From Octopus vulgaris (Eukaryota), in contig OX597831.1 in the NCBI GenBank assembly GCA_951406725.2, forward strand, positions 55,552,001-55,616,000: DNA of 64,000 bases. Direction: 5' to 3'. Made by a program: the position numbers and the translations under genes. How positions within the stretch are numbered: the stretch's first letter is position 1; each line of letters starts with the position of its first letter. Of this stretch, positions 9,748 to 58,074 are shown piece after piece. A model generated the notes under the pieces. The model searched no databases, had not been told where the DNA came from, and saw only the letters and a program-made list of their open reading frames with translations.

Positions 9748-11648
9748 CCGTATTTGACGGCATATTAGACGCACCCTCATTTCAGCAGGTCAAATTCAGG
9801 AAAAAAAGTTTTAAGTGTATTTAAGCATATATTGTTGAAAGCAGTCTAGCAGCACATTACAAAAGCAGAAAACATTGCTGTATAAAAGCAAGCATACAAA
9901 TTACAATAGTAATCATCTTTTTAACCAGAAAACTCTTCATCATCTTCAAAACAAGGAACATCTTCATCACTACTGCTGAAATCACTGTCTTCAAATAATG
10001 CATCATCTTCTGTGCCATCAAGGGCATTGCTAATGCCACACTTCTTAAAAGCCTTCACAATGATTTCAGGCCTAACATCACCCCAAGATTTCTTCACCCA
10101 CTCACACACTTCAGCAATGGTGGGCCGCTTCATTCTTCCTGTGGGTGTGAGGGCATGATGTGGCTCTGCCATCCACTTGTTCCTATGTTCACGCATGTTC
10201 TGCTTAAATGGCTTATTCACAGACACATCTAAAGGCTGCAATTGGCTCGTCAGTCCACCAGGAATGACAGCTAACTGCATTTTCAATTCTCCCACCCTTT
10301 TTTTAATGGTTTCAGTTCTATGTGCTCTAAACTGATCCCAAACCAGAAGAGAAGGTTTTCTTAATAGTCCACCAGGACGCCTTGACCATATATTTTGTAA
10401 CCACAGTTTCATTCCATTTTCGTCCATCCAGCCTTTTTCGTGAACATGAACTAGTACACCTCTTGGAATTTTATCCTTAGGCTGAGTTTTTCTCTTAAAT
10501 ATCAAAAGAGGTGGCAGTTTTATGCCATCAGCACAACAGGCCAGAGCTACTGTATAGTGGGTCTTTTCGTGGCCAGTGGTTTTTATCGAAACCGTTTTAG
10601 ACCCTTTGACACTCACAGTCCTGTTGGATGGTACATCAAATGTGAGTGGAACTTCGTCCATATTCCCTATTTGGCCCAGTTCAAAACAAGTTTTTTTTCT
10701 TGCATTTATAACAAATCTATGAAAATCTAATATTTTTTCTTCATAATCAGCAGGCATTTTGGATGTTTTTGTACGCATTGATAAACCCTTCCGTTTCATA
10801 AGCCTGTAACACCAATCTTCTGTTCCTGCAAAGTTCTGTATCCCTCGTTGTTCTGCTACTCTCATGGCCTCATGAATTATCATTTTGGTAGATACACTTC
10901 TCCCTGAGTTTCTCTCATCAAGCACCCACGTTTTTATATCATCCTCAAGTTCTGGCCAATGTGGGGCTGGGCAACGATGGTTATGTTTACCTTTCTGTGC
11001 TCTCATCAGCTGCTCTTCTTGCTGTCGCCAGACACGTATCATTTTTTCTGTAGGTGGTGGCCCAAAAACCCTTGCTGCTGCTCTATTTCCATACTCCTTA
11101 GCATAATCTACCACTCGTAGTTTGTAGATTTTGTAGCTTGATCTTTTTGCTGCCATAGCCGTGAGGGTGCTTGTATTGTTGTAGTGTGTTTTGTTATGAT
11201 CATAAACTTTGTTGTACCAAGATATCCAACCTACCTCCGTATATACACGAACTCGCAACGATCATGTGCATTCCGTAGTTTTACTCCTCACCGTCAGATG
11301 GCATCGAGTTAGGGTTCCGATCAGCTGATATTAGTAAACGTGTGTCATGGGTCGCAGCCTAACAATTTACGGTAGATTGCTTTGATTTTTACGATAATTC
11401 GTATTTTAAAGTAATAATACTGGTAATAATAATAATAATAATACTAGCAATAAAATAATGATGCATGAGTACGAAAAATATCATTAAGGCATTAGCGTAG
11501 GTAGAAATACTTATCGTAAGCTAGGTTAGTGAGCGTCTGGGAGAAGATTAGCCTATGGGAGGGTCTTGACTTCGCTTATTAGATGCAGGGCGATTTTTTG
11601 AGCCAAATTTTTTGGAAAAAAGTGCATCCTATATGCCATCAAATACGG
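9748..11648 (-). mobile_element. pogo-superfamily DNA transposon (POGK/Passer-like, DD35D), full length
   Basis: TIRs CCGTATTTGAcGGCATATtaGAcGCAC at both ends; TA TSD at 9746-9747 and 11649-11650; transposase ORF inside. Confidence 0.92.
9921..11156 (-). CDS. pogo transposase, 411 aa from MAAKRSSY: Brinker-type DBD, CENP-B HTH, DDE_1
   Basis: NMDEVP, LLVWDQFRAH and QPLDVSVNKPFK motifs; 35 residues between the 2nd and 3rd Asp; acidic C-terminus; no stops. Confidence 0.9.
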   Translation of the reverse strand: MAAKRSSYKIYKLRVVDYAKEYGNRAAARVFGPPPTEKMIRVWRQQEEQLMRAQKGKHNHRCPAPHWPELEDDIKTWVLDERNSGRSVSTKMIIHEAMRVAEQRGIQNFAGTEDWCYRLMKRKGLSMRTKTSKMPADYEEKILDFHRFVINARKKTCFELGQIGNMDEVPLTFDVPSNRTVSVKGSKTVSIKTTGHEKTHYTVALACCADGIKLPPLLIFKRKTQPKDKIPRGVLVHVHEKGWMDENGMKLWLQNIWSRRPGGLLRKPSLLVWDQFRAHRTETIKKRVGELKMQLAVIPGGLTSQLQPLDVSVNKPFKQNMREHRNKWMAEPHHALTPTGRMKRPTIAEVCEWVKKSWGDVRPEIIVKAFKKCGISNALDGTEDDALFEDSDFSSSDEDVPCFEDDEEFSG

Positions 11649-25202: not shown

Positions 25203-27337
25203 AAGAGAATGAATGGGAGAAAGAGAGTTTGCCGAATGTCGACCCACCAGAGGGACCAGCTATCCAAATTGACAGTACCTTGGTAGTTAAAGCAATCAAG
25301 AGTATGAAGGCAGGGAAAGCCCCCGGCCCATCACGAATCATTGCAGAGATGCTCAACATATATGGCAGTGTTGGCTATAGCCTAGTCACCCGTATAGTTA
25401 ACCAGGTGATACATGAAGGAGTCATACCCAATGACTGGTGTAGCAGTATAATAGTCAACTGCTACAGAGGTATCAAGTTGCTGGATTAAGTAATGAAGGT
25501 CACAGAGAGGGTCATAGCCCAACTAATCAGAGAGAGAGTTAGTTTAGATGAGATGCAGTTTGGGTTCGTGCCAGGGAAAAGTACCACTGATGCTATATTC
25601 CTGGTAAGACAACTGCAGGAGAAATACCTAGCCAAAGATAAACCTCTGTACCTGGCTTTCGTTGACATGGAGAAAGCCTTTGACAGGGTCCCCTGATCCC
25701 TTATCTGGTGGTCAATGAAGAAACAAGGGATATATGAATGGTTAGTGAGAGCTGTGCGAGCCATGTACAGGGACGCTGTTTGTAAGGTGAGGGTTGGCAA
25801 CGAGTACAGTGAAGAATTCCGGGTAGAGGTTGGGGTCCACCAAGGTTCAGTCCTCAGCCCCCTCCTATATATCATAGTCCTCCAGGCAATAACGGAGGAA
25901 TTCAAGACAGGATGCCCCTGGGAGCTCCTCTATGCAGATGACCTTGATCTAATTGCTGAGTCACTATCAGAACTGGAGGAGAAGTTTCAGGTGTGGAAGC
26001 AAGGATTAGAATCGAAGGGCCCTAGAGTCAACCTAGCTAAAACCAAAGTCCTAATAAGTAGGAAGGTAGACAAATTACAAACGCCTTCAGGTAGATGGCC
26101 CTGCTCGATCTGTAGAAAAGGCGTAGATAGAAACTCTATAAGATGCACCAAGTGTAAGCTATGGACACATAAGAGGTGCAGCAATGTCAAAGGAAGGCTA
26201 ACTAGGAAGATAGTTTTTGTATGTGGCAGATGCTCAGGAGCAATAAACACTGAAAATGCACAAAGACCAATTTCCGCCACATTCCAGGGAGAAAAACTAG
26301 AAATAGTTGATAGCTTCCGTTACCTAGGTGACCAAGTCAGTAGCGGGGGTGGGTGTGCTGAAAGGGTAACTGCTAGAGTAAGAATAGCCTGGGCAAAGTT
26401 CAGAGAGCTCTTACCTCTGCTGGTGACAAAAGGCCTCTTGCTCAGAGTAAAAGGCAGACTGTATGACACATATGTACGAACAGCCATGCTACATGGCAGT
26501 GAAACATGGGCCGTGACTGCTGAGGATATGCGTAAGCTCGCAAGAAATGAAGCCAGTATGCTCCGATGGATGTGTAATGTCAGTGTTCATACTCGACAGA
26601 GTGTAAGTACCTTGAGAGAAAAGTTGGACCTAAGAAGCATCAGTTGTGGTGTGCAAGAGAGACATTTGCGCTGGTATGGTCATGTGGCGAGAATGGATGA
26701 AGATAGTTGTGTGAAAAAGTGCCACACCCTAGCGGTTGAGGGAACCTGTGGAAGAGGTAGACCCAGAAGAACCTAGGACAAGGTGGTGAAGCATGACCTT
26801 CGAACTTTAGGTCTCACTGAGACCTTTGGAAGTATGCTGTGCGTGAGAAGACCCGGCAGGACAAGTGAGACCATAACCTGTGGCCTCTACCTGGGATGCA
26901 GCCAGTCCACTTATGCATACCTTTCCTTCTTGGGACACAAAACTCTACTTGTGAAGGCCTGTTTAGGCAAGTGAAAATCAAAATCGAAATCGATCAACAT
27001 CAATGGAAATTGTAGCTGTGATACCAGTGCCGGTGGCACGTAAGAGAGCCATCCGAACATGGCCGTAGCCAGCGCCGCACCAACTGGCCTCCATGCCGGT
27101 GGCATGTAAGAAGCACCATCCGATCATGGCCGTTGCCAGCCTCATCTGGCACCTGTGCCGGTGGCACGTAAAAAGCACCCACTACACTCACGAAGTGGTT
27201 GGCGTTAGGAAGAGCATCCAGCTGTAGAAACACTGCCAGATCAGACTGGGCCTGGTGCAGCCTTCTGGCTTCCCAGACCCCAGTTGAACCGTCTAACCCA
27301 TGCTAGCATGGAGAGCAGACGTTAAATGATGATGATG
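25203..27337 (+). mobile_element. RTE-clade LINE, 5'-truncated and inactive; RT plus PHD finger; 3' UTR ending in (GAT)n
   Basis: KAPGPS, QFGF, FVDMEKAFDRV, GVHQGSVLSP, LLYADDL, FRYLG motifs; stops at ~25487 and ~25694. Confidence 0.93.
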
Positions 27338-27459
27338 CATATATATATACATATATATACATACATACAAAGTTAATTCAAACATGAAAACACAACAACG
27401 CGAGGTTGTGGAACAAATATAGTATTATTGGATGCTCAGGAAGGAAGGGAAGAAGGAGG

Positions 27460-27494
27460 GTTTAACGTTTCGAGCAGAGCTCTTCGTCAGAAAC
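27460..27494 (-). ncRNA. Minimal type I hammerhead in a ~200-bp cassette (27369-27565) between microsatellites
   Basis: GTTT-CTGACGA-A-GAGC-TCT-GCTC-GAAA-CGTT-AAAC; palindromic AACGTT helix III. Confidence 0.65.
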
Positions 27495-27564
27495 ATAGGA
27501 AAAGGAAAGATCCAGTGAGGGAAGACATTGGGAAAAAAATCGCCAACGATACACACGCAGTCAC

Positions 27565-27759
27565 ATATATACATACATATATATACACATGTATATATAC
27601 ACACATATATATAGACATATATATATATACTCACACATATATATATATATATAGAGAGAGACATATATACGTACATATGTATATACGTACATATATATAT
27701 ATATACATACATATATATATATACATATATATACATACATATATATATATATGCATATA

Positions 27760-27857
<98 letters not shown>

Positions 27858-28049
27858 CATACATATATATATACATACATATATATATACATACATATAT
27901 ATATACATACATATATATACACACATGTATGTATATATATGTATGTGTGTATGTATATATTGTATGCATGTATATATATATTGTATGCATGTATATATAT
28001 ATATATGTATGCATGTATATATATGTATGCATGTATATATGTACGTATA

Positions 28050-28084
<35 letters not shown>

Positions 28085-28137
28085 ATATGCACTTACCACA
28101 AACATATATATACATACAATATATGTGTGTGTGTGTG

Positions 28138-28180
<43 letters not shown>

Positions 28181-28236
28181 ATATGCACTTACGCACAAAC
28201 ACATATATATACATACATATATATGTGTGTGTGTGT

Positions 28237-28292
<56 letters not shown>

Positions 28293-28340
28293 ATATGCCT
28301 ACACGCACGCACATATAGATACACATATACTACACACACA
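27565..28340. repeat. Compound (TA)n/(TACA)n/(TATG)n microsatellite in PSAT1 intron 1
   Basis: Seen directly; source of the spurious YIYI ORFs. Confidence 0.95.
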
Positions 28341-28474
28341 TGCCTGCGCATCTCAACACACCTGAAGTTGTTATTTGTGCATGAGTGTTAGACATTAATT
28401 TAAAATCTCCGTTTGTCTCCAACACGCTAAGATTACAAAAAGAAAAAAAAAAAAGAAGAAATGTCAGTACCCAC

Positions 28475-30007: not shown

Positions 30008-30800
30008 AAGGAAAAGGAAAGGAAAACCAAGGCAGGGCGGGCATCTCAGGCTGTTTAGAATATTTAATTAGGGTAAGGTGAATCAAGAAGGGAGAAGCAG
30101 AAGTATTGGGTTGTCCGGAAAGTTCATGCCGATTTTTAAAGGAAAGAAAAAGGTCAATAAATACTTGCCATTACATTTTTAATCAACCAAATATGAACCA
30201 TTTTGTTGCACAATGAGTCTCCATCTTTGCTTGAACTTGAAAATTCCATCTTCCCAGAATTGGGGTGGTCTCAAGGCAAACAATTCATCAAGGTATCTTT
30301 TTACGTCATCCAAGGAATTGAAATTTTTACCATGAAAACTATTCTGCAGTGACCTGAATAAGTGGAAATCCGAAGGAGCAATATCTGGTGAATATGGAGG
30401 GTGGGGTAACACGTCCCAGCCGAGCTCCAGCAATTTTTGTCTGGTTCCCAAAGCATCAAGTGCCGAAAATGAACTTTCTTATCTTCCATTTTAAAGGGTT
30501 ACAAAATTAACACAGGTTATAGGAACATAAACCTTCTTCCATAAAAAGATAGCTTAAACTGTGCTCTAAATGAAGGTGTAGTCAAATCTTATTTTATGGA
30601 CTCAACCATGTTCTAAAATAAGTCGAAAGGTAAGCTACTATAAATCGGCACAAACTTTCCGGACAACCCAATAATTACTTCTATTTCTCCTATTTTCAAT
30701 TTTCCTTCTACTTTTCCTTTTTTGATTCACCTTACTCTAATTAACTACTTTAAATTACCTGAGATGCTCGTTTTGCCTTGGTTTTGTTTTCCTTTTCCTT
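30008..30800. repeat. Foldback element (arms ~30008-30103 and ~30705-30800) hosting the mariner
   Basis: AAACCAAGGCA..GCATCTCAGG..TTAATTAG.GTAAGGTGAATCAA is present in inverted form on the other side. Confidence 0.7.
30106..30671 (-). mobile_element. Internally deleted mariner element
   Basis: TIR TTGGGTTGTCCGGAAAGTT..TGCCGATTT; TA TSD; N-terminus MEDKKVHFRH joined to C-terminal HPPYSPDIAPSDFHLF. Confidence 0.92.
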
Positions 30801-31297: not shown

Positions 31298-31549
31298 ATC
31301 TATTGGTTTAGATCATCAGTGAACTAAACCCCTCATATTATATATGTATGTGTGTGTGTGTGTGTATTTAAATATAGGCGCAGGAGTGGCTGTGTGGTAA
31401 GTAGCTTGCTTACCAACCACATGGCTTTGGGTTCAGTCCCACTACATGGCAACTTGGGCAAGTCTCTTCTACTATAGCCTCAGGCCGACCAAAGCCTTGT
31501 GAGTGGATTTGGTAGACGGAAACTGAAAGAAGCCTGTTGTATGTATGTA

Positions 31550-31584
<35 letters not shown>

Positions 31585-31639
31585 CATTATTGGTGAATTG
31601 AAGAAATGGAGCTGAACGCAGATTGAACAGAAATCGTTT

Positions 31640-31733
31640 TATTTCATTCTACACGTGTTTCGAAAGGCACAAATTACCAAAATCCGATGGAATAATGGGA
31701 CCATATTGTGTCTTTCTCTTCAGGAAGAAAATA
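31640..31733 (-). ncRNA. Type I hammerhead ribozyme (left arm, identical copy)
   Basis: Reverse complement of 33498-33591. Confidence 0.85.
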
Positions 31734-32320
31734 GGAAATCCGTTGGAAAAACAAAAACAGAACAGAGGCGGAGCAAAAACAAATCGAACTATGCTCCTAA
31801 GAGCCCATGGCGAAACTGTTTATCAGTGTATGTTGAGAACCGGTGGCTGAAGAATTCAACGGGTCAGGCATCGGTCAATCATGTGGGTGAGGGGGCGTAG
31901 ATGTTCTTTGTGACCGAGAATAAAGTTCTGACTATTTAAGGAATATTGGATGTTTTATAAGGGGCGAGAAAAAATCTACTTAGAGACGTGTGTGTGTGTA
32001 TACTGTTCTATATACGTGTGTGTTGGCGTAGGGGTAGAAAACATTTTTTGTGTACGTGTGTGCGTTTGATCGTTCGGCTGTCAGTGGCTACTGCCGTGAT
32101 GACCGTTGGGTGGCAGAAAAAAAATATATATATCATGTTTTATGTGTGTGTGTGTTCTCATCTAAGCCTGCCTTGTCAAGGAAACCCCCCGCTGTGAAAA
32201 AACCAAGCCCCGTTTGTCTTACAGGAGTAATTCCCCTTGCAGTGGTTAATCGTAGATATCTTAAAGGCTATTTCAGAATTTGTTGCCAAGGGCTATGGGT
32301 GCCGGTATTATTTATAAACG

Positions 32321-33023
32321 CTATTTAAAAGCCAGATAAGTGTAACGCCGCCAATGGGGGCATCGAAAAGCCGACTGTAAAAGCCCGTTTACCATCCGGC
32401 CTCTGGCAAACAAAATATGGAAGAGTTCGGAGACACAAAGGTTGCACTGCCTTCTGCCCCTATCAAATGGGAGGGCCACCGACAAAATTGACCATTCCAG
32501 CCTGTAGCTTAAGTTCGTATCCTTCAGTCGCCATATTAGCTTACTGAGTCCCGTGGTCTGGCGCTTGTTCATGTCCCGAAAAGTTGCGTAATGGTTGGAG
32601 ACACGCAAAGACAATCTTGAGGATGAGGCCCCTACATAAGTGAAGACATCTGAGTCCGTGTAAACCTTGCATTGGTAGACGGCGTTTTTGATCTTGGAGT
32701 TCGCCGACGTGAATCTAATTCTGCTAGGATTAGTTTCTGAAATTAGAACTGCGTTCCTGTCACTATATTCGTTCCGAGACCTGCAGCCGCTTACTACTCT
32801 ATTTTCCACTACGTCACTATTAACTATAGGAATAACCCCTGATTCTCCACTATCTATCAAAGTGCTGTCATTGCTACTGCCCGTGGTGCTGCTATTGCGG
32901 GAAATGATGCTGGGGATGCTATTGGGGCTCTCTACCCTACTCCCATTGTTACCGTCAACCACAACACCCCTATTTATAACTATACCCCTAGTGGGTACTC
33001 CCTGGCTGGAGCTGAGATTATGT
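32321..33023 (-). CDS. GIY-YIG endonuclease domain of a PLE (Neptune-like), N-terminally truncated, no ATG upstream of the domain
   Basis: AVYQC...TYVGAS...LR..NH...LSKLIWxLK...WSIL...CNLCxxE...N...CPH pattern; frame stays open up to the inversion junction. Confidence 0.85.
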
Positions 33024-33497
33024 GTTTTTTCACAGCGGGGGGTTTCCTTGACAAGGCAGGCTTAGATGAGAACACACACACACATAAAACATGATATATA
33101 TATTTTTTTTTTCTGCCACCCAACGGTCATCACGGCAGTAGCCACTGACAGCCGAACGATCAAACGCACACACGTACACAAAAAATGTTTTCTACCCCTA
33201 CGCCAACACACACGTATATAGAACAGTATACACACACACACACGTCTCTAAGTAGATTTTTTCTCGCCCCTTATAAAACATCCAATATTCCTTAAATAGT
33301 CAGAACTTTATTCTCGGTCACAAAGAACATCTACGCCCCCTCACCCACATGATTGACCGATGCCTGACCCGTTGAATTCTTCAGCCACCGGTTCTCAACA
33401 TACACTGATAAACAGTTTCGCCATGGGCTCTTAGGAGCATAGTTCGATTTGTTTTTGCTCCGCCTCTGTTCTGTTTTTGTTTTTCCAACGGATTTCC

Positions 33498-33591
33498 TAT
33501 TTTCTTCCTGAAGAGAAAGACACAATATGGTCCCATTATTCCATCGGATTTTGGTAATTTGTGCCTTTCGAAACACGTGTAGAATGAAATA
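33498..33591 (+). ncRNA. Type I hammerhead ribozyme (right arm)
   Basis: CTGAAGA 33508-33514; stem II GAAAGACACAA/TTGTGCCTTTC; GAAA 33570; palindromic helix III ACACGTGT; GUA cleavage after 33581; helix I TTTCTTC/GAATGAAA. Confidence 0.85.
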
Positions 33592-33923
33592 AAACGATTT
33601 CTGTTCAATCTGCGTTCAGCTCCATTTCTTCAATTCACCAATAATGTTCTAATTTCAATTATCCGCACCAACGCACGGTTGCAACACCATATGGTTGTAC
33701 CTCCAACCGTGCTGTTTTACTGCTGTGATTTTTGCTACTAAGGTATCGGTTAAACTTTTGATTAATCTACTACAAGATTATTCATCTTTCTATTTCACAT
33801 ATATATATATATATATATATATTGGTAAAAACGGTAAGATAACAAAAGAAAGAAAGAGAACTCAATATTATGTAAATAGTGGAAATTTATTTATAAAATA
33901 ATATGTTACAATTACTCAATAGT

Positions 33924-33989
33924 CAAGATAAAACTCTGAGTTTCAGATGCCGAAGTGGAAATCCACAACACTATCTCTTCGGTTATCTA
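33924..33989 (-). ncRNA. Variant/degenerate hammerhead (CCGAAGA core)
   Basis: AGATAA-CCGAAGA-stem II-GAAA-CTCAGAG-TT-TTATCT; 6-bp helix I; near-palindromic helix III. Confidence 0.5.
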
Positions 33990-35019
33990 GCCATCTGAAA
34001 AAACGCTATGAAAAAATACCGTTATATAAAGGGAAATTACTGTGTTATATTTATGCTACTTATATAAAATAAGATTAAAATTTCATAGTAAAACACGTAA
34101 ACATGGCTAGTCATACGCTCACATGTGCGCTCGCGGACCTACGTGCGTACTTATACGTCACTATGAAAACGTACACATCTTCACTCGCATTTTTCGCCAA
34201 ATATATACGCATATATATACAACCTCATACACACACACACATGCGTACTGTAAAAGTGCATACATGCGTCTATATACGCACAAGCACAAGAAAAACCATG
34301 GTTAAAGGTAACAGAAAAAAACATAAGGAAGTATACAAAGCATAAAAACCACGTTCATATACGGACATGCCCTTATGTACTCATACACACACACGCCCAT
34401 ATATGTACATACCCGCACATGTTTATATACGCATACATACACACACATATACGAAAAATGAAGATACATATGCCCCCCCCCAAAAAAAAACCCTAAAAAA
34501 ATGGAAAAATACTAAGTAAAAACGTCTATATATATATGCATTCTTATGCCCGCACACACGCACACATCTAAAACTGCCCATTCATATATATTCACACATA
34601 TATGTGTGTGTGTGTTTGTCCCCCCAACATTACTTGACAACCGATGCTGGTGCGTTTACGACCCCGTAACTTAGCAGTTCAGCAAAAGAGAAAGATAGAA
34701 TAAGTACTAGGCTTACAAAGAATAAGTCCTGGGGTCGATTTGCTTGACTAAAGGCGTCGCTCCAGCATGGCCACAGTCAAATGACTGAAACAAGTAAAAG
34801 AGGTTTAAGTAACCTCATTAACGGATAGAAAATATCCAATGAAATACTGGTTTGTTATCCATTATTTTGTTGTGAATAGTAATGTTCCTAAAATAATAGG
34901 TTTAAATATAAGTCTTGGTTTATAGATATTCAAATTAAAATCCAGAAAATGAGGAATTAGCATTAATATAATTTAATGCTATATATTTCTGGGTTTTAAT
35001 TTGGATATATATATATATA

Positions 35020-57980: not shown

Positions 57981-58074
57981 CGCAGTACACATGTTTCGAG
58001 CTTTATAAAACAACTTATTCTTACATCAATGTATAATCGACATAACAGATAGTTTAAAACCCTCTTCAGCCGCA
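57981..58074 (-). ncRNA. Type I hammerhead ribozyme in a ~350-bp cassette (57946-58298) between (TA)n runs
   Basis: TGCGG-CTGAAGA-GGGTTTTA...TAAAGCTC-GAAA-CATGTG-TA-CTGCG; all three helices pair. Confidence 0.75.

Follow-up and report, generated by a model that had tools for sequence, protein, structure and literature searches.

The described systems that come closest to the present locus are Penelope-like elements (PLEs) of the Hydra clade. According to the accessible parts of Craig et al. (2021, PMC8557442), these possess a nuclease without CCHH and with CxxC and CxH motifs around the E and N residues, a type I hammerhead near the 3' end and a (TA)n target, and they occur in octopus, traits that all recur here. 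The same source lists (TA)n as the target in 26 of 27 Hydra families, including Hydra-1_Obim of Octopus bimaculoides, and ties a CxCx5C linker to the (TA)n targeting of Hydra-clade elements. In the usual PLE layout given there (Fig. 2 legend), the 5' end bears an inverted copy that is itself 5'-truncated and one of the two ends bears a tail; our copy displays both features. In one Hydra-clade element, Penelope-13_HM, the inverted copy is likewise 5'-truncated and both strands carry a hammerhead (PMC8557442), as found here. Dimer-type hammerhead motifs have been described in PLEs, an architecture that the hammerheads of this locus fit, and in 2014 truncated PLEs were named as the source of opposite-strand hammerhead pairs spaced by 100-700 bp (both in the accessible text of PMC4209133).

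Further systems share some of these features. The Penelope families of Adineta vaga (PMC3846280, accessible parts) also comprise 5'-truncated copies between inverted pLTRs with a tail at one end, as well as microhomology junctions and Asn-rich in-frame inserts between RT and nuclease, but their tails measure about 31 bp and their pLTRs about 200 bp, many of their junctions contain palindromes, and target duplications are visible. In the case of the Poseidon element PAc of Anolis (Frangieh et al. 2024, PMC11167929, accessible parts), AT-rich DNA is cut and extended by the protein on both strands, and reverse transcription starts at two sites in vitro, a behavior that would explain two outward ends of unequal length in our locus. 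PAc belongs to another clade, and its hammerhead overlaps the ORF start. Animal non-LTR retrozymes, as described in the accessible part of bioRxiv 10.64898/2026.07.22.740005, are likewise RT-less, PLE-derived and equipped with a type I hammerhead, but they are non-coding direct tandem repeats, whereas here one inverted pair surrounds a coding remnant. A non-LTR retrozyme was rejected as a classification, given the single inverted pair and given that a search of the 64-kb window (the whole stretch of 64,000 nucleotides of Octopus vulgaris DNA analyzed here) for a further copy of the arms or the element found none.

Structure of the insertion

The insertion consists of two outer arms and a core. 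The left arm (31583-32203, 621 nt, minus strand) and the right arm (33024-33648, 625 nt, plus strand) are inverted relative to each other and align with 0 substitutions and two gaps of 2 nt each, one within a (GT)n run and the other within a poly-A run. Between them lies a core of 820 nt (32204-33023). Read on the minus strand, the main copy begins at the head-to-head junction (33024-33025), where a GT is common to the truncated core and the inverted arm. A Ser/Asn/Val/Gly-rich spacer without start codon follows (32777-33025, residues 13-95), which is a remnant of the linker from RT to nuclease, then a Cys-free segment that replaces the CxCx5C linker (32678-32776, residues 96-128), and the Hydra-type GIY-YIG endonuclease domain (32321-32677, residues 129-246), as delimited by the alignment of relatives and by fold prediction. 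The stop codon (32321-32323) is followed by a single, unduplicated proximal 3' UTR (32204-32320, minus strand) and by the left arm, which runs in nuclease sense and represents the main copy's distal 3' UTR (pLTR-like end). The whole 3' UTR, at about 740-890 nt, is long. The right arm is an inverted, shorter second copy of this 3' end. Among the contigs of the public runs, one spans the border of left arm and core (32132-32858) with 2 differences.

Both outer ends of this single copy adjoin (TA)n. A short repeat of very high copy number (about 31380-31535) has the left tract (31553-31582) at its 3' tail, and the depth of this flank reaches 1e7 in three DNA-like runs. The right tract occupies 33799-33822. 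TA tracts of at least 6 units make up 700 of the 64000 bases, that is 1.1% of the window. Between the right arm and its tract, a tail of 150 nt (33649-33798, plus strand) is present on the inverted copy only. Since this tail shows repeat-level depth in the three DNA-like runs and one contig (33470-33683) crosses from the arm into it, it is part of the element family; its length contrasts with the tails of 30-40 nt in described families. Altogether, the arms differing only in (GT)n and poly-A length, the 820-bp core, the (TA)n at both ends and the one-sided tail of the preliminary description were all recovered from the sequence.

Each arm bears a type I hammerhead. In the inverted copy (33498-33591, plus strand) the core extends over 33508-33514 and the predicted cut falls after 33581; in the main copy (31640-31733, minus strand) a mirror image of this motif has its core starting at 31723 and its predicted cut at 31650, with 66 nt from the cut site to the end of the left arm. 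When the core was held unpaired, folding gave a 9-bp stem I with one bulge and a long stem II, while stem III, formed by a palindrome, reaches 8 bp in the dimer. Compared to Hydra-1_Obim (accessible text of PMC8557442), stem II is longer and the sequence is another one. At E <= 1, Rfam returned no hammerhead for the locus, its matches being limited to microRNA ones caused by microsatellites and a single weak one to U6atac, and the unconstrained fold was no more stable than shuffled sequences (z 0.53). The complete hammerheads proposed earlier are thus borne out by cores and constrained fold, with Rfam silent. The left motif lies in nuclease sense and downstream of the nuclease and the right one points the opposite way, which agrees with the earlier view that both ends are 3' ends of the element facing outward. 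As the motifs are on opposite strands, one transcript carries one motif plus its antisense; we infer that neither hammerhead can cut in RNA from this locus, each being paired with its own antisense arm.

The encoded nuclease and its relatives

A single stop-to-stop frame of 246 codons (33061-32321, minus strand) is mostly contained in the core. Its first Met is residue 164, downstream of the VYQ and YVG motifs, and in-frame ATGs farther upstream are each met by a stop. The uninterrupted GIY-YIG frame reported before is therefore open as stated, but has no start codon ahead of its catalytic motifs. Judging from the reading frame, the nuclease would not be producible from this copy unless splicing or a non-AUG start came into play.

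The identity of the nuclease was approached by relatives and by fold. The window protein itself had no match in Pfam. Relatives were drawn from 1.84 billion representative sequences, where 2473 matches were obtained at E <= 0.001; among the best 150 of these 2473, which were used further, 86 were aligned and 23 of the 86 match the Pfam GIY-YIG family. The predicted fold of residues 96-246 (pLDDT 89) has I-TevI as its top structural match (Z 9.1, rmsd 2.4, 89 residues aligned), with T4 EndoII at rank 2 (Z 8.5) and UvrC at rank 4. Foldseek gave no match at E <= 0.001, and its ranks 1-7 were nevertheless GIY-YIG nucleases; a sequence search of the PDB with a profile gave 0 matches. The conserved residues Y129, Y142, G144, R153, H157, E212 and N225 are all present. 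In GIY-YIG nucleases, such Y, R, E and N residues have catalytic roles. The CxxC (206/209) and CxH (C234/H236) motifs flank the conserved E212 and N225, and in the near-invariant columns of the 86-sequence alignment the sole change is one Lys, which is S151 here. The CCHH motif is absent from the nuclease, with only C131 lying between VYQ and YVG.

Other searches contributed little. Word-index protein searches found no relative, even with part of the Octopus sinensis protein P0152 (see below) as query, and carry no weight; neither a protein scan nor a DNA-motif scan of metagenomes turned up a relative, and a protein atlas offered only unnamed clusters, one of them with GIY-YIG on 11% of its members. 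Overall, the GIY-YIG identity that had been suggested is backed by the Pfam matches of the 23 relatives and by the I-TevI-like fold, and the motifs are those of the nuclease type by which Craig et al. (PMC8557442) define the Hydra clade. An assignment to Neptune was rejected for the missing CCHH and CX2-5CxxC motifs; for Neptune, Nematis and Naiad together, the CCHH and CX2-5CxxC linker are absent and the nuclease ends the frame (in Naiad it is N-terminal). Because the CxCx5C linker is missing as well, we call the element Hydra-derived and not a strict member of the Hydra clade.

Some relatives are fused to RT. Among the best 150 of 2473 matches, the two best and one cluster mate are gene models of Octopus sinensis. 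Residues 16-178 of the window protein align with 47% identity to residues 348-516 of P0152 (XP_036366068.1, Octopus sinensis), a protein of 544 aa in which RT motifs, thumb, Asn/Ser-rich spacer and the same nuclease start follow one another. Its residues 1-305 match a longer relative at the end of the RT core and in the thumb (E 7e-27 and 9e-11) and, by eye, also Hydra-1_Obim in the alignment of Craig et al.; the protein starts downstream of the RWK and DKT motifs. In P0002, a single frame comprises the thumb motif, a spacer rich in Asn and this nuclease. Pfam found no RT family in P0152, P0030 or P0020. The named relatives come from gene prediction and represent another subfamily, with 56-61% identity across the nuclease part. 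Neither RT nor anything else upstream of the part aligned to P0152 was found in the window, and the core therefore begins in mid-linker.

Contigs of public runs were also compared to the locus (four runs; the listed matches fall mostly in the very-high-copy repeat of the left flank). In run X6, a contig of 924 nt is identical over 32897-33025 and its remaining 795 nt are not on this locus. In run X15, three contigs depart from the locus behind 33025 and continue alike (agreement 0.99); 30 letters of this continuation, read by hand, give ten stop-free codons in the nuclease frame. Two further contigs of X6 part from the locus behind 32158 and end in a long unrelated stretch; this is perhaps a subfamily or an insertion that has only the distal 3' UTR in common. 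Five listed joints of arm to arm were considered as other inversion junctions and rejected, as their short side measures 21-27 letters and they lie near local palindromes or repeats.

How the insertion arose

That a truncated and inverted PLE insertion is at hand, whichever the mechanism, we hold to be very probable. The Penelope-like origin assumed at the outset is upheld, and a fresh truncated insertion, which had been named as a mere fallback, becomes the best reading in light of relatives with thumb or RT upstream of the same linker, contigs continuing beyond 33025 and the missing start codon. More specifically, we consider it probable that an RT-encoding, Hydra-like Penelope element was recently inserted in 5'-truncated form together with its own inverted 3' end by priming on both strands at (TA)n. 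The protein of a full-length source copy would have nicked both strands of a TA tract, and its RT, primed at each nick, would have begun to copy one and the same RNA at two sites separated by 150 nt. Start sites at this distance would leave a tail on one side only. One cDNA would have reached about 1.44 kb and stopped within the linker, its counterpart would have ended within the 3' UTR at about 0.78 kb, and both would then have been joined head to head over a 2-nt overlap, although an overlap of 2 nt is common by chance. A single insertion event probably produced the main copy together with its inverted counterpart. At 31689 and 33542 the two arms agree in a minority base, most of the family depth showing a different one, which fits a single template. 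Priming on both strands would also be in line, by analogy, with the in vitro data from another PLE, Poseidon.

The same truncated element could have acquired its inverted arm by fold-back or self-priming of the cDNA or from an antisense template, or the arms could stem from two separate insertions into one TA tract. Self-priming is the explanation favored for head-to-head repeats by Arkhipova et al. 2013 (PMC3846280, accessible parts), and the right side of the same TA tract seems to hold another PLE-like end. However, we regard these routes as rather unlikely: the junction has no palindrome and 820 unpaired bases separate the arms, the (TA)n needed for a second TA-targeted insertion is lacking at the junction, and the identical arms with their common minority allele point to one template. 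The locus had also been proposed to be a distinct, RT-less mobile unit of nuclease plus ribozyme, in which the whole cassette of arm, core and arm would be transcribed and moved in trans and would recur in many copies with the same junction. The open frame, the identical arms and the abundance of the family (63-84% of the element's sampled words are present in 19 runs with two organism labels) could be read in this manner, and non-autonomous PLE derivatives exist (PMC8557442; bioRxiv 10.64898/2026.07.22.740005; accessible parts of both).

Nonetheless, such a unit is very unlikely, as the relatives are fused to RT or thumb, the catalytic motifs have no upstream start codon, and contigs run past the junction with other sequence, while an open frame is to be expected in any young fragment. 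In addition, summed depth along the element drops to its minimum in the bin over the junction (32992-33085) in 3/3 DNA-like runs, which is a weak sign, such depth not being equal to copy number. An assembly or fold-back artefact that stitches pieces of the family together was weighed too, since none of the 32 listed records (of about 560,000) spans the locus or bridges the 33023/33024 junction, polishing can yield perfect arms, and assembly problems at such structures are noted in the accessible text of Craig et al. (PMC8557442). But the mirror halts at the element end without including the flanks, the right end has a family tail that the left one lacks, two simple runs distinguish the arms and the core is non-palindromic, so that we deem an artefact very unlikely. 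Under the preferred reading of both-strand priming at (TA)n, the copy was likely dead on arrival, having neither RT nor start codon and having its hammerheads paired with antisense arms in any read-through RNA.

Age, possible editing and surroundings

With 0 substitutions over 621 bp and a rate of 0.0036 per site per My (PMC13282606, accessible parts), an upper bound near 0.7 My can be set on the age of the insertion, assuming that the arms were not equalized by conversion or polishing; the bound doubles if the rate is pairwise. In O. vulgaris, 31 recently active Penelope-like families have been described (accessible text of the same source). The youth and recent activity inferred at first from the arms agree with their identity over 621 bp.

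Octopus is an animal rich in A-to-I editing. In run X6, taken as RNA only by guess, 51 of 95 listed places are A>G or T>C, flanking repeats included, compared to 18/82, 19/71 and 21/84 listed places for the three runs that are DNA-like. At 31693-31714, two contigs of X6 show four T>C differences on the plus strand (A>G in element sense) within 22 nt of the hammerhead stem II; all four are nearly absent in DNA-like runs, but those at 31693 and 31713 also appear in single contigs of X7 and X15. This cluster is possibly due to editing or to one diverged copy. The A>G/T>C excess of X6 was discarded as evidence of editing, as it covers flanking repeats and two of the left-arm sites also occur in DNA contigs.

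Several other features were observed in the window. The right flank (33823-34025, minus strand) is another high-copy repeat with summed depth near 1e6. It folds into a type I hammerhead-like structure with its core starting at 33982 and a predicted cut at 33932; the core reads CCGAAGA compared to CUGANGA, and the repeat ends 110 nt past the cut, at the same (TA)n tract. A second PLE family that used this target probably left its 3' end here. Hammerhead-like cores are also found on the minus strand at 58069, 35956 (missed by a stricter scan) and 27490, with a (TA)n or (TATG)n run within about 45-190 nt, and are likely further PLE 3' ends. Farther away, 0.8 kb between inverted repeats of about 130 nt and 82-89% (30008-30800) looks like a small DNA transposon or MITE, and about 1 kb of mixed (TA)/(CA)/(TATG) microsatellite (27377-28387) yields long open frames. 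An uninterrupted frame of 446 codons (9921-11261, minus strand) reads like what we take to be a pogo/Tigger-type DDE transposase, and the frames at 25486-26776 and 1128-1638 are presumably remnants of an RTE-type LINE reverse transcriptase.

A nuclease without the cysteine linker

The main departure from the Hydra clade concerns the segment upstream of the nuclease. Residues 96-128 contain no Cys, and consequently no CxCx5C linker, and are predicted to form a beta-hairpin; in the accessible parts of PMC8557442, Hydra-1_Obim keeps CxCx5C, whereas here a Cys-free segment stands behind a long Ser/Asn-rich spacer. The Cys-free segment is common to the Octopus sinensis proteins P0002, P0003 and P0152, while the cysteines are kept in Hydra-1_Obim and in an Argonauta protein. 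A CxC-type pattern was detected in 57 of the 103 proteins with sufficient upstream sequence, and most of the other 46 resemble broken gene calls. A quick tree of the nuclease was calculated for 61 of 156 proteins, those with short cover or no linker label being excluded. In this tree, six rows without linker cluster together with one that keeps the cysteines (SH-aLRT 99), and a single loss of the linker does not follow from it.

We tentatively propose, as quite possible yet slightly short of probable, that an abundant, recently active and Hydra-derived octopus lineage has replaced CxCx5C by a Cys-free hairpin and a Ser/Asn-rich spacer and has kept its (TA)n targeting. One linker-less copy within (TA)n is a lead, and not a test, regarding the role of the linker in targeting. 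In the literature outside subscription journals and Repbase, no report of a linker-less octopus family or of nuclease-only hammerhead units was found. The linker-less nuclease is a modest new variant, its closest relatives likewise having no linker.

In conclusion, the insertion is ordinary for its group, as layout, ribozyme and target have already been described, and it is of use as a neat and recent case of head-to-head joining in which the positions of the two 3' ends differ by 150 nt. The linker-less nuclease matters slightly more than the insertion, since the linker had been linked to (TA)n targeting. If the proposed lineage is real, it would be a natural test against the view that the linker confers targeting to microsatellites.
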